Assembly: GCA_964560475.1 (NCBI GenBank)
Contig: CAZLMZ010000001.1
Coordinates: 538-64,537 of the forward strand
Length of the DNA stretch: 64,000 nucleotides
From: an uncultured Anaerolineae bacterium
Lineage (GTDB): Bacteria; Chloroflexota; Anaerolineae; JAFGEY01
Direction of reading: 5' to 3'
The notes beneath the pieces were generated by a model. It was not told where the DNA came from and ran no database searches. It was given only the letters and a program-made list of their open reading frames with translations. How positions within the stretch are numbered: position 1 is the stretch's first letter; each line of letters opens with the position of its first letter. Below, one piece after another: positions 41,362-61,807 of this stretch. A program made the translations under genes and the position numbers.

Positions 41362-41390
41362 TTGACAGTCCAAACCCACGATGTTATGAT
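41362..41390 (+). promoter_or_regulatory. consensus sigma70 promoter (TTGACA-17-TATGAT) upstream of the PfkB kinase gene
   Basis: An exact -35 consensus with 17-nt spacing. It leaves a ~135-nt GC-rich leader before the ATG at 41528. Confidence 0.5.
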
Positions 41391-41527
41391 GGCTCGAGCC
41401 TGGGTTTGTGCGGTCCACGGGGTAGCAGCGCAGGCCCAGCCGGTCCAGCGGCGCCCGCGGTGACTCGCGCGAACCGGCACGACGGGCGCTGGGCACGCGT
41501 AGATGGCGGATCAGCGGATGAGGAGGG

Positions 41528-42559
41528 GTGTGCATGGACATCGTCTGCCTGGGCGAGATGCTGATCGACATGTTCCCGTCGGAGCTCGGCCGGCGACTGG
41601 CAGAGGTCTCAGCATTCCACCCAAAGCCCGGAGGGGCGCCAGCGAACGTTGCGGTCGCTGCGGCCCGATTGGGCGCAGAGAGCGCCTTCGTCGGCAAGGT
41701 AGGAGATGACGCATTCGGGCACCATCTGATCGAGGTGCTGCGCGCAGAAGGGGTCGATACGTCAGGGATGCGCCTCGATCGGGAGGCGCGCACGACGATG
41801 GCGTTCATCGCGCAGCCCGACGAGGACACCTCCGAATTTGTGTTCTACCGCAACCCCGGCGCGGACATGAGGCTGCGGCCGGACGAGCTGGACCGAGGTA
41901 TGCTCGGCCAGACCAAGGCCTTTCATTTTGGCTCGATCAGCCTGATCGCCGAACCGAGTTGCAGCGCGACGCTCGAGGCACTGAAGGAAGCGCGTGTGGG
42001 AGGGGCGCTAATCTCCTTTGACGTAAACTATCGCCCGACCTTGTGGGAGGCGCCGGCAGCGGCGCGGGAACGGATCGAGGAGACGATCCCACTGGCTGAC
42101 GTGATCAAGGTGAACGAGGTCGAGCTGGCGCTGCTCACCGCGGTGTCCGGCCTGGGCAAGGGTGGAGCCTCCGATACGCCGTCGCCGGGCCGGCTGGCCG
42201 GTGCTCTTTCGGCACTTGATCGCGGCAGCCAGTCGCTGTTGAGCATGGGACCGCGCCTGTGCGTCGTCACACTCGGCAGGGAGGGCAGCTATTTTTCGAC
42301 GAGGCAAGGCGGCGGACACGTGCCGGGCTTCCAGGTCGAGACCGTGGACGCCACGGGGTGTGGAGACGCGTTCGTGGCTGGCCTGTTGTGGCAGTTGGTT
42401 GGGCATGGCGTGTGGCGAGAACCGTTGGACGTCGTTGCAGTGGGCACCGCGCTGCGCTATGCGAATGCCGTGGGGGCATTGACGTCGCTCACGCGCGGCG
42501 TGATCCCTGCGCTGCCGACCGCCGCACAGGTGGCGACATTCCTGTCCTCTCAGACCTGA
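41528..42559 (+). CDS. PfkB-family carbohydrate kinase (fructokinase/ribokinase-like)
   Basis: N-terminal GG motifs (VCLGEMLIDM ... KPGGAPANVAVAAARLG) and a C-terminal DATGCGDAFVAGLL. Confidence 0.8.
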   Translation: MCMDIVCLGEMLIDMFPSELGRRLAEVSAFHPKPGGAPANVAVAAARLGAESAFVGKVGDDAFGHHLIEVLRAEGVDTSGMRLDREARTTMAFIAQPDEDTSEFVFYRNPGADMRLRPDELDRGMLGQTKAFHFGSISLIAEPSCSATLEALKEARVGGALISFDVNYRPTLWEAPAAARERIEETIPLADVIKVNEVELALLTAVSGLGKGGASDTPSPGRLAGALSALDRGSQSLLSMGPRLCVVTLGREGSYFSTRQGGGHVPGFQVETVDATGCGDAFVAGLLWQLVGHGVWREPLDVVAVGTALRYANAVGALTSLTRGVIPALPTAAQVATFLSSQT

Positions 42560-42599
42560 GGAGGGGCTCCGTGTAGTGGAGAACACGCTGCAAGTGGAT

Positions 42600-42628
42600 T
42601 TGACAGCACGTGGGAAGCGTGCTACACT
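42600..42628 (+). promoter_or_regulatory. consensus sigma70 promoter (TTGACA-17-TACACT) with a palindromic spacer
   Basis: The spacer GCACGTGGGAAGCGTGC is itself an inverted repeat (GCACG...CGTGC), which suggests an overlapping operator. Confidence 0.5.
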
Positions 42629-42726
42629 GGAGACGTTCTGAGAGAGATACGGACCAGGCTGGCGTGTAGCGCCGCCTGGGTAGCCAAGAGAGCGGGGCAC
42701 AGCCTCGCGCGAAAGGGAGGCATGCT

Positions 42727-42795
42727 ATGCAGATGAAGAGCTGGAAAGGAACTGTCATCGACATCGAGCGTGCCTGTGAGGATCTGATCGCATAG
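42727..42795 (+). CDS. candidate 22-codon micro-ORF / leader peptide (MQMKSWKGTVIDIERACEDLIA)
   Basis: GGGAGG sits 6 nt upstream of the ATG, which is ~75 nt downstream of the consensus promoter. It terminates 25 nt before the first hairpin of the attenuator-like structure. There is no homology support. Confidence 0.3.
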   Translation: MQMKSWKGTVIDIERACEDLIA

Positions 42796-42818
42796 ACATC
42801 GGCGGACAGCCGGTCTTG

Positions 42819-42962
42819 CGGCCACGGGCGCGTTCAGCCCCGTGGCCGTTTGTGTTGGGGTCTACTCACATGCGGTGAGCCGCGTAGACGAGTGTGGGCC
42901 ACGGGGTATCCAGCCTCGTGGCCTTTTGTCATGCGGGGCCTGGCCTTGTTGGCGCTCACCGC
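42819..42962 (+). promoter_or_regulatory. attenuator-like RNA structure: four-segment alternative hairpins, second hairpin with a U-tract
   Basis: Segment 1 GGCCACGGG (42820-28) pairs with segment 2 CCCGTGGCC (42839-47). Segment 3 GGCCACGGG(G) (42897-905) pairs with segment 4 CTCGTGGCC (42915-23), followed by TTTTGT. Segment 2 is also perfectly complementary to segment 3. A long-range clamp GCGGTGAGC (42872-80) / GCTCACCGC (42954-62) encloses the second hairpin. Confidence 0.45.
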
Positions 42963-43056
42963 GGGAGGAGGTTTGTCATGGCTTCTGTTACGTCGGAACC
43001 CAAGTTGTCGATGGACATACGCCATGCGAGAACACACGTGAAAGGGAATAGAAGCA

Positions 43057-44094
43057 GTGACTGGGAGACCCACTCCTGTGCAGGATCCTGAGCAATGCGA
43101 AGACGAATACGAGTACTATGAACGCATGTTCGACCCGGTGCGGACCGACCGTCGAGCACGGCGGAAGCGCAAGCCGGTGGCGAGACACATACCCAAGCGA
43201 GACGAGGAGGTGGTGATCGCCGAACTGGGCGATCTGGTCGGGCTCGAGGGTGGGTTCCGTCCGACCTACACGCCAGGACGTTACGAGGAGGGCTGGCTGC
43301 TCGAGTCGATCCGTTCGTTCTACGATCAGGGCCTGATCGTGGACGTACTGGCACTGGTCAAAGGTGGCAAGGAAGCGAGCGTCTACCTGTGCCAAGCCCA
43401 TCCCTCGACGGGCACTGACCTGCTGGCGGCCAAGGTGTACCGGCCACGCAAGTTCCGGAATCTGAGCAACGACAAGGTGTACCGCCAGGGGCGTGACGTG
43501 CTCACCGTGGACGGGCGGGCGGTGAAAAAGACAGATCACCGCGTGATGCGCGCGATCGGGAAAAAGACTGCGTTTGGGATGCAGGTCAGCCATACCTCGT
43601 GGTTGATGCACGAATACAATGCCCTCCGTTCGCTGTACCGTGCGGGAGGAGCTGTACCTCGCCCCTATGCCGCTACAGAGAACGCGATACTGATGGGCTA
43701 CTGCGGCGACGCGCGCCTCGCTGCACCAACGCTCAGCCACATACGCCTGGACGAGGAAGAGGCGGAGCCGCTCTACCAGGAGGTGATGCGGAACGTGGAG
43801 CTCATGCTGTCACACGGCATGATCCACGGCGACCTATCCGCGTACAATATCCTGTACTGGGAAGGCACGATCATGCTGATCGACTTTCCGCAGGTGGTCA
43901 GCCTGGACGCGAATCGGGAGGCGATCGACTTGCTCGATCGCGACGTGACTCGCGTCTGTGCGTACTTTCAGCGGCAGGGCGCGGCGCACGAACCGGGCTC
44001 GATCGTAGAGCGGCTGTGGGAAGCCTATGGTACGCCGCTGCCACCGGTCGACCTGGAGTTAATGACCCTGGACGAGCTGCCTACCACCGGATAG
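43057..44094 (+). CDS. RIO-type serine protein kinase (RIO1 family)
   Basis: The RIO signature (KEASVYLCQ ... LMHEYNALRSL ... MIHGDLSAYNILY ... IDFPQ). GTG start with an AAAGGGAA RBS. Confidence 0.75.
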   Translation: MTGRPTPVQDPEQCEDEYEYYERMFDPVRTDRRARRKRKPVARHIPKRDEEVVIAELGDLVGLEGGFRPTYTPGRYEEGWLLESIRSFYDQGLIVDVLALVKGGKEASVYLCQAHPSTGTDLLAAKVYRPRKFRNLSNDKVYRQGRDVLTVDGRAVKKTDHRVMRAIGKKTAFGMQVSHTSWLMHEYNALRSLYRAGGAVPRPYAATENAILMGYCGDARLAAPTLSHIRLDEEEAEPLYQEVMRNVELMLSHGMIHGDLSAYNILYWEGTIMLIDFPQVVSLDANREAIDLLDRDVTRVCAYFQRQGAAHEPGSIVERLWEAYGTPLPPVDLELMTLDELPTTG

Positions 44095-44098
44095 AATG

Positions 44099-44128
44099 GT
44101 GCCCCACCCTGCACGCGGGGTGGGGCAC
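44099..44128. terminator. bidirectional terminator hairpin between convergent genes
   Basis: An 11-bp perfect stem (GTGCCCCACCC / GGGTGGGGCAC) with an 8-nt loop, between the RIO kinase stop (44094) and the convergent UDG-like gene end (44174). Confidence 0.55.
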
Positions 44129-44173
44129 TCTGTAGATGGGTGTACCGAAGAGGCGTTTGCCGAGCTGAGGTGC

Positions 44174-44845
44174 TTAGCGATGCTGCTGTGGCAGCGACTG
44201 CACGCTAGCCACAAAGCGCGATTTGCCGCCGTGCGATGGGTGCCGGATATAGGGCGCGCGGACGTCGAGCTTACGCAGTTGCGCCTCGCTGACGCGGCCG
44301 ATGGCGAACACCTGCGCCGGGCCAAAGAGGCTGAGAATACAGCGCAGGATGGGGATAGCGCTGTCCAGCTCGTGCTGTGTGGGCTTGCGATTGCTGAGCG
44401 GCTCTCTGTCAAAAGGATGCCAGGGAAAGGCGTTCCACAGCGCGCAGTCCTGGCGGCCGTCGAACGCCTGCCACACGATTGTCCCCGAGCGCTCATGCCA
44501 CAGCTCGTCGACGCTGCTCTGCTGCAGACCGAGGCCCTGCGCCCATAAAAGGCACTCTGGGCCTACGATCTGCGCCTCGCCTGTGAAGGGAATTCCAGAG
44601 AAGCGGCACCCTGCGTAACCGGCAGCCTCGCCGACCAGGAGGTAGGATGCGCCTGAGAAGGACTCCAGGTAGCGGCGCAGGTTGCTGCGACGAATCGCCG
44701 GTGCCCCTGGCACGCCCAGTTCGGGGTCGAGATCGCGGTACTGGTTGAAGGCGCCGTCGCCGTCATAGTCAACCAACAGCTCGAACAACCGGTCCAGCAA
44801 AGACTCTCGTGCCTGCCCGTCCATAGGTGCCTGCTGCGCACTCAC
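44174..44845 (-). CDS. uracil-DNA glycosylase superfamily protein (family 4/5-like)
   Basis: UDG motif A-like (LLVGEAAGYAGCRFSGIPFTGE) and a C-terminal HPSHGG motif. Confidence 0.5.
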   Translation of the reverse strand: MSAQQAPMDGQARESLLDRLFELLVDYDGDGAFNQYRDLDPELGVPGAPAIRRSNLRRYLESFSGASYLLVGEAAGYAGCRFSGIPFTGEAQIVGPECLLWAQGLGLQQSSVDELWHERSGTIVWQAFDGRQDCALWNAFPWHPFDREPLSNRKPTQHELDSAIPILRCILSLFGPAQVFAIGRVSEAQLRKLDVRAPYIRHPSHGGKSRFVASVQSLPQQHR

Positions 44846-61525: not shown

Positions 61526-61601
61526 TGGCGCGCCCGGCGGGACTCGAACCCACAACCTTCGCTTTCGTAGAGCGGTGCTCTATCCATTGAGCCACGGGCG
61601 C
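61526..61601 (-). tRNA. tRNA-Arg (anticodon ACG), CCA encoded
   Basis: Cloverleaf folded by hand: 7-bp acceptor stem GCGCCCG/CGGGCGC, D-arm GCTC/GAGC, anticodon loop CU-ACG-AA, T-loop TTCGAGT, terminal CCA. Confidence 0.85.
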
Positions 61602-61615
61602 ACATTCGTTATCAG

Positions 61616-61705
61616 CGGGGAGGCAGGGATTCGAACCCTGGAAGGAGCTTTTGACCCCTTAACCGCTTAGCAGGCGGCCCCATTCGACCACTCTGGCACC
61701 TCCCC
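61616..61705 (-). tRNA. tRNA-Ser (anticodon GCU), type II with long variable arm, no encoded CCA
   Basis: Acceptor stem GGGGAGG/CCTCCCC, anticodon loop CU-GCU-AA, long variable arm, T-loop TTCGAAT. Confidence 0.85.
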
Positions 61706-61720
61706 TTGGCTGTTCTGCAG

Positions 61721-61807
61721 CGGAGGGAGAGGGATTCGAACCCCCGGTGACCTTGCGGCCACAACGGTTTTCAAGACCGCCGCCATCGTCCACTCGGCCA
61801 TCCCTCC
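61721..61807 (-). tRNA. tRNA-Ser (anticodon UGA), type II, no encoded CCA
   Basis: Acceptor stem GGAGGGA/TCCCTCC, anticodon loop CU-UGA-AA, long variable arm, T-loop TTCGAAT. Confidence 0.85.

Follow-up and report, generated by a model that had tools for sequence, protein, structure and literature searches.

A putative leader-peptide transcription attenuator upstream of a RIO-type kinase gene in Chloroflexota

A gene for a RIO-type kinase/ATPase in an uncultured Anaerolineae bacterium of the phylum Chloroflexota appears to be controlled by an attenuator in its 5′ leader. The gene lies in a stretch of 64,000 nucleotides (nt) of contig CAZLMZ010000001.1, hereafter the window. The interval ahead of it, 42600-43056, is read here as a promoter and a 5′ leader that probably acts as a ribosome-dependent (leader-peptide) transcription attenuator, a reading drawn from comparative sequence analysis. 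Its core is a set of three alternative RNA helices (coordinates in Table 1). Segment a, which overlaps the Shine-Dalgarno (SD) sequence of a 22-codon open reading frame (ORF), the micro-ORF, can pair with segment a′ inside that ORF; a′ can also pair with the upper 5′ arm and loop of a first terminator-like hairpin, T1; and T1 can close on itself. These helices would act as anti-antiterminator, antiterminator and terminator, respectively, an assignment better supported than the dependence on a ribosome. The initial annotation of the region, made from the letters of the window, held that 42.6-43.0 kb would wrongly pass for empty intergenic space, and it is indeed occupied by a conserved attenuator-type leader belonging to the RIO gene.

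The leader was compared across contigs of metagenome relatives and 80 representative loci from GTDB, and all three helices covary. In the a:a′ helix, counted on alignment A5, 90.3% of the cells are paired and seven of the nine pairs have changed on both sides (0/500 shuffles; slid controls 24-56%). For the helix between a′ and the T1 5′ arm (a′:T1-5′), the paired fraction is 84.7% on alignment A4 and 86.2% on A3, a plain MAFFT alignment, with six of 13 pairs changed on both sides, 0/500 shuffles and slid controls of 28-60% in either case. The T1 helix, again on A4, is paired in 92.6% of the cells, and seven of its 12 pairs have changed on both sides (0/500 shuffles; slid controls 26-52%). The A4 and A5 counts refer to motif-anchored concatenations from which the variable linker was cut out. 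From a plain MAFFT alignment, RNAalifold predicts both a:a′ and T1 unaided.

Columns 5-13 of a′ in the alignment pair with a, and columns 4-16 with T1; in the window, a is reached through 42767-75 (ORF codons 14-17) and T1 at 42823-35. Because the a′ nucleotides for the two partners overlap, and the T1 5′ arm is shared with the T1 3′ arm, the three helices are mutually exclusive. The distal a′:T1 sequence is wholly different among lineages, and a, a′ and the T1 loop change together in a three-way covariation. The window type pairs GAGCGUG of a′ with CGCGUUC of T1, the loci L046 and L035 pair AGUACG with GGUACU, L064 pairs UAUGCA with UGCA, L051 AUUGCG with CGCAA, and L076 GCAUG with UAUGC. The conservation of the T1 loop is thus explained by its being the partner of a′. 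In the window the a′:T1-5′ duplex reaches -27.1 kcal/mol (z = -3.5 vs shuffles), and cognate a′:T1 duplexes of the core clade have z values of -3 to -4.6 against shuffled a′. Nascent prefixes ending at the T1 loop were also folded: if a is masked, as a ribosome on the start region would do, a′ turns to T1-5′ at 13 of 13 loci; in unmasked prefixes the antiterminator is preferred in the window-type RNA and a:a′ in most other loci. The trp-type 1:2 / 2:3 / 3:4 topology proposed in the initial annotation, with segments 1 and 2 the arms of T1 and 3 and 4 those of a second hairpin, T2, named the right kind of element, an attenuator, but missed the central pairing of a′, inside the micro-ORF, with a or T1. 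Without a′ such a scheme cannot open T1, because the link to the sensor is absent from it.

The ORF that houses a′ is itself a constant feature of these leaders. An SD sequence and an ORF of 18-28 codons that ends between a′ and T1 are found in all 19 RIO leaders examined in detail, namely the window, 12 close relatives and six GTDB loci with GCCACGGG-type hairpins, and of the 74 loci that could be evaluated in a GTDB-wide scan, 20 were listed with an SD-ORF and a U-tract hairpin behind it. The ORF begins beside a, includes a′ and terminates 7-17 nt beyond it; a′ lies 39 nt past the ATG, and T1 follows 21-87 nt further on. The SD sequence GGGAGG, the ATG 6 nt after it and the stop codon at 42793-95, all of which had been described before, are present in the window, and the micro-ORF is a conserved feature among relatives. 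In the close clade the peptide carries an I-E-R-A-C core exactly five codons ahead of the stop, which varies at synonymous sites only (ATC GAG CGT GCC TGT vs ATA GAA CGC GCC TGC), and one 3-nt indel in the micro-ORF among relatives preserves the frame. Outside the close clade the peptides are unrelated, and the GCGCCUG-type a′ motif falls in all three reading frames among lineages. A motif read in three frames within unrelated peptides therefore points to a deep constraint on the RNA, and the ERAC codons are constrained because a′ is engaged in RNA pairing.

No shared codon run and no conserved N-terminal residues were found among about 24 leader peptides, which bears out the earlier remark that the peptide lacks a run of regulatory codons. 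The first eight codons of the micro-ORF are unconserved and likewise have no such run. An amino-acid attenuator of the trp, his or leu type was rejected on this ground. A separate observation concerns DIERAC, encoded at 42757-42779, which at both the peptide and the DNA level repeatedly matches a conserved D-x-x-R-V-C stretch close to the C-terminal end of RIO kinases in other species (residues ~290-300, DRDVTRVCAYF). Against the RIO motif D-I/V-x-R-V/A-C the match has tblastn E = 3-20, with 21-nt blastn matches at 90%; the resemblance is probably due to chance, although it may conceivably be the relic of a duplication.

A small Cys-containing peptide gene followed by hairpins and an enzyme gene is also the layout expected if the micro-ORF encoded a precursor peptide, for example of a ribosomally synthesized and post-translationally modified peptide (RiPP). 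In that case the kinase would be the modifying enzyme and the hairpins would set the peptide:enzyme ratio, as in mccA-mccB. This explanation is very improbable and was rejected, since the conserved motif occurs in three frames and the peptides are unrelated outside the close clade, where RNA pairing already accounts for the conserved codons. The leader design moreover precedes rsgA as well, and its hairpin cassette also a tetracycline ribosomal protection gene (see below), and RIO proteins form a large, widespread family (more than 5,000 homologues).

Under ribosome-dependent attenuation, the leader would switch between two registers. In the off register a would pair with a′, and transcription would stop at T1 or T2, each folded as an intrinsic terminator, after about 220 or 295 nt. 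In the on register a′ would form 13 base pairs (bp) with the T1 upper 5′ arm and loop, blocking T1; the freed T1 3′ arm may then pair with the T2 5′ arm and pass antitermination on to T2, and at loci with three hairpins this relay would extend one step further. The choice would depend on the position of the ribosome on the 22-codon ORF when RNA polymerase reaches T1. A ribosome at the SD sequence or start codon, or within about the first eight codons, would cover a or separate it from a′ and so permit read-through. One located at a′ or at the stop codon would cover a′ or occupy the loop between a′ and T1, leading to termination, and with no ribosome a:a′ would be expected to form first, again leading to termination. 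The leader would thus sense that translation is slow or blocked at an early stage and respond with more RIO kinase, the signal being a general slowing or blockage rather than the lack of one amino acid.

Several points weigh against this scheme, whose weakest step is its direction. At equilibrium the window-type free prefix favours a′:T1-5′ (-27 kcal/mol) over a:a′ (-17 kcal/mol), and because of this preference an untranslated window-type leader might also read through; both the default state and the sign of the response are uncertain. In this clade a ribosome with the stop codon in its A site would abut a′ rather than cover it, and that it would block a′ is a steric argument only. The first eight codons, unconserved and without a run of regulatory codons, point to no specific signal. 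That T1 and T2 terminate transcription and that the ORF is translated is predicted from sequence features, the natural signal and the relay to T2 are likewise presumed, and the anchored construction of A4 and A5 also counts on this side.

The same three-helix switch could instead be set by a trans-acting factor, with the ORF incidental. Candidates would be an RNA-binding protein on the GGCCACGGG stems (possibly the RIO kinase itself, in autoregulation), a ligand or temperature. Sequence-specific recognition would fit the stem common to T1, T2 and, where present, T3, which is unusually conserved across Chloroflexota classes, as well as the conserved T1 loop of the close clade, and a peptide that is unconserved across the wider family is what an incidental ORF would predict. 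However, the conservation of the stem is equally explained by the two partners available to each arm, and the T1 loop covaries with a′ rather than being fixed. The SD sequence, start codon and ORF keep a constant size and placement in the 19 leaders examined in detail (the GTDB-wide scan listed such an ORF with a U-tract hairpin in only 20 of its 74 loci), and segment a overlaps the SD sequence itself. Nor does the variable sequence within a:a′ offer an aptamer-like core, and no Rfam family matches. A trans-acting factor is thus an unlikely alternative to the ribosome as the sensor.

Where the initial annotation had left the mechanism open between ribosome, protein and ligand, the choice is now narrower: the anatomy suggests ribosome-mediated attenuation, and a ligand aptamer is improbable, given the lack of conservation in the sequence between the two strands of a:a′. 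Searches of Rfam gave no match at E <= 10 over 41500-44200 and none in six related leaders, and three tRNAs were all that passed its gathering thresholds in the window, in keeping with the earlier impression that no known RNA family fits. Riboswitches, T-boxes and other cis-regulatory families of Rfam were rejected for want of a covariance-model match and of a conserved aptamer core. Protein-dependent antitermination (PyrR, ANTAR, RAT) found no support either: for the types with a curated Rfam model, none matched at E <= 10; no motif search was made beyond Rfam, and an RNA-binding protein of unknown type is conceivable.

T1 and T2 are direct repeats with a period of 76-77 nt. T2 was flagged as terminator-like by a hairpin scan (12 pairs), and U-tracts stand behind the T1-type and T2-type hairpins of the loci in which hairpins were detected, a count for which the detection filter itself demanded a T-rich tail. 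In relatives the T1 stem is nearly invariant, as is the loop in the close clade (CGGCCACGGG-YGC-GYTCR-GC-CCCGTGGCCG), and the second hairpin repeats the T1 stem, though its loop varies, as does its distance (36-110 nt). Most of the listed leaders have two or three hairpins; L033 has only one. The 10-bp hairpin 1:2 and the hairpin 3:4 with its TTTTGT tail, as originally described, are present, supported by covariation and terminator-like.

A different value attaches to the 2:3 pairing between the T1 3′ arm and the T2 5′ arm (42838-47 with 42897-906, 10/10), on which the trp-type topology had relied. It is present and retained in every lineage, but it can at best be a downstream relay, and because T1 and T2 are direct repeats the complementarity is automatic and not itself evidence of a switch. 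Over 18 adjacent hairpin pairs, the 1:2 pairing comprises 148 Watson-Crick pairs, 13 wobbles and 1 mismatch, the 3:4 pairing 146, 15 and 1, the 2:3 relay pairing 144, 15 and 3, and the 1:4 pairing, an internal control, 138, 19 and 5. In favour of a relay, most one-sided changes affect segments 1 and 4, the outer ones; the 2:3 pairing of L095 and L044 is perfect or better despite wobbles in their 1:2 or 3:4 pairing; and L051 carries an identical AC-to-GT change in both 5′ arms. Against it, the 2:3 pairing is only marginally above the 1:4 control, the relay is inseparable from the shared ancestry of the repeats, and in L091 a compensatory change limited to T1 leaves a C-A mismatch in 2:3. A relay of antitermination through 2:3 would explain why all hairpins of one leader keep identical stems over deep divergence; it is plausible, with its chances evenly balanced. 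The 9-bp clamp described around T2 also exists in the window (9/9) but is kept only in the closest clade, where its changes are one-sided and of a wobble-compatible kind; it is unrecognisable in distant leaders.

The hairpins of the window stand downstream of pfkB and are repeated, and they might accordingly be pfkB terminators, as the initial annotation had allowed, or copies of a dispersed element of the repetitive extragenic palindromic (REP) type, the remaining features being due to chance. The probability of either is negligible. Between the pfkB stop codon and the hairpins stands a promoter, from which the hairpins are about 190 and 270 nt away, and the module is intact at loci without pfkB. 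The exact stem GGCCACGGG occurs in the 64 kb only in T1 and T2, with counts at one mismatch equal to chance, and R1, a covariance model built from RIO leaders, has a single hit in the window. Both readings were rejected for the intact module at loci without pfkB and the single R1 hit.

The module accompanies RIO proteins of 54-95% identity and consists of a TTGACA-17-TGnTAnACT promoter, a strong SD sequence, the 18-28-codon ORF, two or three U-tract hairpins with the stem GGCCACGGG/CCCGTGGCC and the RIO gene. In alignments of relatives, conservation sets in exactly at the -35 box and extends as far as the RIO start. The window and its nearest relatives have pfkB as the upstream neighbour; in L085 a nitroreductase gene on the minus strand takes this place, and elsewhere other genes do. 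Since conservation sets in at the same box whatever lies upstream, the promoter, the leader and the RIO gene form one module. The sequence between promoter and SD and that between the hairpins are unconserved past the closest clade. Six GTDB loci with 54-64% RIO identity (L033, L035, L044, L046, L051 and L064), assigned by their titles variously to Anaerolineae/Anaerolineales, Caldilineales and Ardenticatenaceae, share the same layout with GGYCRCRGG stems.

When the intergenic DNA was compared with the 80 GTDB loci by blastn, only marginal short matches appeared (best E = 0.19), and the distant leaders were found only through their hairpin and ORF anatomy and the covariance model. In metagenomes, 38 loci fitted a degenerate T1 pattern. 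Five of them were real (L103, identical to the window, and L104, L118, L134 and L123); the other 33 were GC-rich sequences that matched by chance. A covariance-model search upstream of bacterial RIO kinases had been proposed as a check at the outset; R1 finds relatives across Chloroflexota, and T1, a:a′ and a′:T1 covary among the leaders.

The promoter matches 10 of 12 consensus positions, and a 4-kb scan found three promoter-like sites against 0.6 expected. Its TTGACA and TACACT boxes with their 17-nt spacing are as first described, and transcription probably starts near 42635. The form TTGAC-17-TGnTAnACT recurs in distant loci. The spacer (42606-42622) had been called palindromic and is a true inverted repeat in the window (GCACG...CGTGC), but its sequence is not kept in relatives. 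Several of these again have inverted repeats of 4-5 bp, such as CACCA...TGGTG in L088, which are probably due to chance; that of the window may be chance or a feature acting at the DNA level.

Folding of the 426-nt leader gives -195 kcal/mol against -168 +/- 6 for shuffled sequence (z = -4.4; 0/100 shuffles equal). Two further leader hairpins, P1 and P2, are conserved in the close clade only and appear to be accessory, because they are missing or unalignable in more distant leaders. Just past the presumed start, ACGTTCT at 42638-42646 resembles the T1 loop (GCGTTCA), and its CGTT is invariant in close relatives; it could be an extra partner of a′ or a, and RNAalifold shows a weak pairing with segment a.

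The promoter might also drive an independent small gene, encoding the 22-aa protein or a small RNA of about 220 nt, with tandem terminators of its own, while RIO is transcribed from elsewhere or by unregulated leak-through. The IERAC core with its synonymous-only changes in the close clade would suit such a gene, and terminated attenuator leader transcripts can act in trans, with peTrpL and rnTrpL as reported precedents (PMC7298713). However, the unit always accompanies RIO or rsgA, whatever lies upstream, and a promoter scan found no second promoter between T2 and RIO. Because a′ is read in different frames among lineages, the identity of the peptide is not the conserved feature, and a covarying a′:T1 antiterminator would have no role in a plain terminator. 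An independent gene is therefore improbable, still more so than control of the switch by a trans-acting factor.

The regulated protein matches Pfam PF01163 (RIO1; E = 5.9e-37), and its best NCBIfam match, the PA4780-family RIO1-like kinase, is under the cutoff. Homologues with E <= 1e-60 number more than 5,000; where a source organism was shown, it mostly belonged to Chloroflexota. The protein thus places the window in that phylum, probably in the class Anaerolineae. Identity is about 64% to the best species-representative genomes and 95-69% to metagenome relatives. The GTG start that had been placed downstream of the hairpins is found there.

A second short frame, uORF2, begins between T2 and the RIO gene behind a very strong SD sequence; its last 35 nt extend beyond the RIO start and are read in the +1 frame relative to that gene. 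It is open in L081, L085 (with a GTG start) and L088, where its peptide is poorly conserved, and in L092 and L095 a 20-codon upstream ORF ends within the RIO SD sequence, TGAAAGGGA. Around the uORF2 start, 42975-89 can pair with 43047-61 in the SD and start region of RIO, and this helix shows a G-U to U-G double change in L088. The arrangement suggests that RIO translation may be coupled to that of uORF2.

Among the neighbouring features, a gene of about 200 aa without a Pfam match follows RIO on the same strand in several of the loci L090-L094 (for example L091, 4196-4792), and in the window RIO is followed by a minus-strand UDG-family gene. A second near-consensus promoter (TTGACA-17-TATGAT with TG, 11/12) is located at 41362-41390, and the pfkB-family kinase gene (41528-42559) starts about 140 nt further on. 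A tRNA cluster (Arg-ACG, Ser-GCT and Ser-TGA) occupies 61526-61807 on the minus strand.

Table 1. Features of the RIO leader in the window, and related leaders at other loci (positions of the latter refer to the locus named)
Feature	Position	Strand	Description
Sigma-70-type promoter	42600-42628	+	-35 TTGACA 42600-05, 17-nt spacer, -10 TACACT 42623-28; TG at 42620-21 gives an extended -10, TGcTACACT
Leader hairpin P1	42654-42679	+	RNAalifold, six close relatives
Leader hairpin P2	42690-42711	+	RNAalifold, six close relatives; pairs altered on both sides
SD and segment a	42715-42726	+	SD GGGAGG 42715-20; a, AGGCATGCT, 42718-26, putative anti-antiterminator spanning the SD 3′ half and the spacer before the ATG
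Leader micro-ORF	42727-42795	+	22 codons, MQMKSWKGTVIDIERACEDLIA; ATG 42727, stop 42793-95; SD GGGAGG 6 nt upstream
Segment a′	42766-42778	+	GAGCGTGCCTGTG; putative antiterminator strand within micro-ORF codons 14-18
Terminator hairpin T1 (predicted)	42819-42857	+	CGGCCACGGG-c-GC-GTTCA-GC-CCCGTGGCCG, then TTTGTGTT; 42819-28 pairs with 42839-48 (10/10)
T1 upper 5′ arm and loop	42823-42835	+	CACGGGCGCGTTC; target of a′, 13 contiguous pairs in the window
Clamp left arm	42872-42880	+	GCGGTGAGC; exact complement of 42954-62 (9/9); clamp encloses T2
Terminator hairpin T2 (predicted)	42896-42930	+	GGGCCACGGGG-tatcc-AGCCTCGTGGCCT, then TTTTGT; stem 42896-42924, 12 pairs including G-U
Clamp right arm	42954-42962	+	GCTCACCGC; directly 5′ of the uORF2 SD
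uORF2	42963-43091	+	37 codons; SD GGGAGGAGG 42963-71, ATG 42978, TGA 43089-91
RIO-type kinase/ATPase	43057-44094	+	345 aa; GTG start; SD GAAAGGGAA 43040-48; regulated gene
rsgA leaders	L053 548-1956; L048 2000-2900; L017 20-1464; L012 812-2265; L008 796-2283		20-21-codon ORF ending APAAR, two or three U-tract hairpins
Otr(A)-like loci	L123 400-3753; L135 1040-4395		TACACT promoter, SD, 19-codon ORF with GCGCCUG, three GGCCACGGG hairpins

Related leaders precede two further kinds of gene. R1 finds copies upstream of rsgA in L053, L017, L012 and L008, the rsgA and rsgA-RIO hits scoring 12-30 bits, and inspection shows the order SD, a, ORF, a′, hairpin upstream of rsgA in these four loci and in L048. 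The rsgA product was identified by TIGR00157 (233 bits vs a cutoff of 100). RsgA is a GTPase of 30S assembly. In L048 the attenuator is followed by rsgA and RIO, in L053 by rsgA, one more gene and RIO, and rsgA is the same-strand neighbour of RIO in nine of 80 representative Chloroflexota genomes. The second kind is represented by L123, found by the T1 pattern scan, and its relative L135, found by a protein look-up. The first hairpin of this leader type is identical at 28 of 30 positions to T1 of L092, and two GCGCCUG motifs are present, one within the ORF and one just past its stop codon. Downstream lie a gene for a ribosomal protection GTPase of the Otr(A)/Tet type (NCBIfam NF012153; 743 bits, just below the cutoff of 775) and one for an APH-family phosphotransferase.

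Ribosomal protection genes are classically induced by stalled ribosomes, and archaeal and eukaryotic RIO kinases act on the small subunit. The products of RIO, rsgA and the Otr(A)-like gene would all act on the small subunit or on blocked ribosomes, which fits a sensor of ribosomes stuck at the start, and the shared leader design and hairpin cassette point to a possible translation-stress regulon. The broadest form of this idea is tentative, with the balance leaning somewhat against it: a Chloroflexota-wide set of relay attenuators, each with one sensor and a chain of identical stems, would switch on RIO, RsgA and Otr(A)-type genes when ribosomes are stuck at or near initiation. Literature searches found nothing that links RIO kinases to leader peptides, attenuation or RsgA, and no paper on the role of bacterial RIO kinases, widespread as these are. 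If the idea is right, bacterial RIO kinases would act in the maturation, quality control or rescue of the 30S subunit. Guilt by association with rsgA, with rsgA-RIO loci and with tetracycline protection would point the same way, to a role at the small subunit and induction by translation stress. Two or three terminators in tandem could then answer to one sensor, as every 3′ arm that is set free would capture the 5′ arm following it, and to our knowledge no such relay layout of tandem identical-stem terminators has been described before. The leader would also provide a concrete regulatory element for one bacterial RIO gene and add to the cis-regulatory RNA families of Chloroflexota, of which Rfam contains almost none.

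Among known systems, the trp, his and leu attenuators follow a four-segment logic in which 1:2 and 3:4 compete with 2:3, and their stop codon is placed so that a finishing ribosome prevents the antiterminator. Their antiterminator wins by forming earlier, not by greater stability. The RIO leader resembles them in its four-segment logic and stop placement, and its antiterminator would likewise win by being the first to form, whereas it has no tandem regulatory codons and the gene it precedes is not biosynthetic. Stalling within its unconserved first eight or so codons would register the general state of translation rather than one charged tRNA.

For the ermK leader, a leader peptide and two rho-independent terminators have been reported, and leader-peptide attenuation has been reported for tet(M) of Tn916, a ribosomal protection gene. 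Both parallel the Otr(A)-like loci, in which three T1-type hairpins follow a short ORF, though no sequence relationship exists, and we know of no description of a relay between tandem terminators through shared arms for ermK or tet(M). Tandem riboswitch, T-box and PyrR attenuators likewise place several terminators in series. In these, each terminator has its own sensor, while in the RIO leader only the first hairpin is linked to one, through a′, and the later hairpins share its stem.

The closest likeness is to rli80-hflXr of Listeria (PMC6310831), with its short SD-preceded leader ORF and its triad of anti-antiterminator, antiterminator and terminator, a combination also reported for bmrB-bmrCD of Bacillus subtilis (PMC4191407). 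In these two antibiotic-responsive systems a ribosome stalled over the anti-antiterminator region lets transcription continue, the regulated gene acts on ribosomes or protects translation, and, as in the RIO leader, no run of amino-acid codons is involved. The RIO leader differs in that its anti-antiterminator overlaps the leader ORF's own SD sequence, and its antiterminator lies inside the ORF and would invade not the whole 5′ arm of the terminator but its upper stem and loop. It also has two or three tandem terminators with identical stems and lacks an RLR-type arrest motif; the genes concerned are those for a RIO kinase and RsgA, the host belongs to Chloroflexota, and the system is known from sequence alone. 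The predicted architecture is thus set apart from known leader-peptide attenuators by an anti-antiterminator that overlaps the SD sequence, an antiterminator that reaches into the loop of the terminator, a relay that may link successive terminators, and the unexpected genes under its control.

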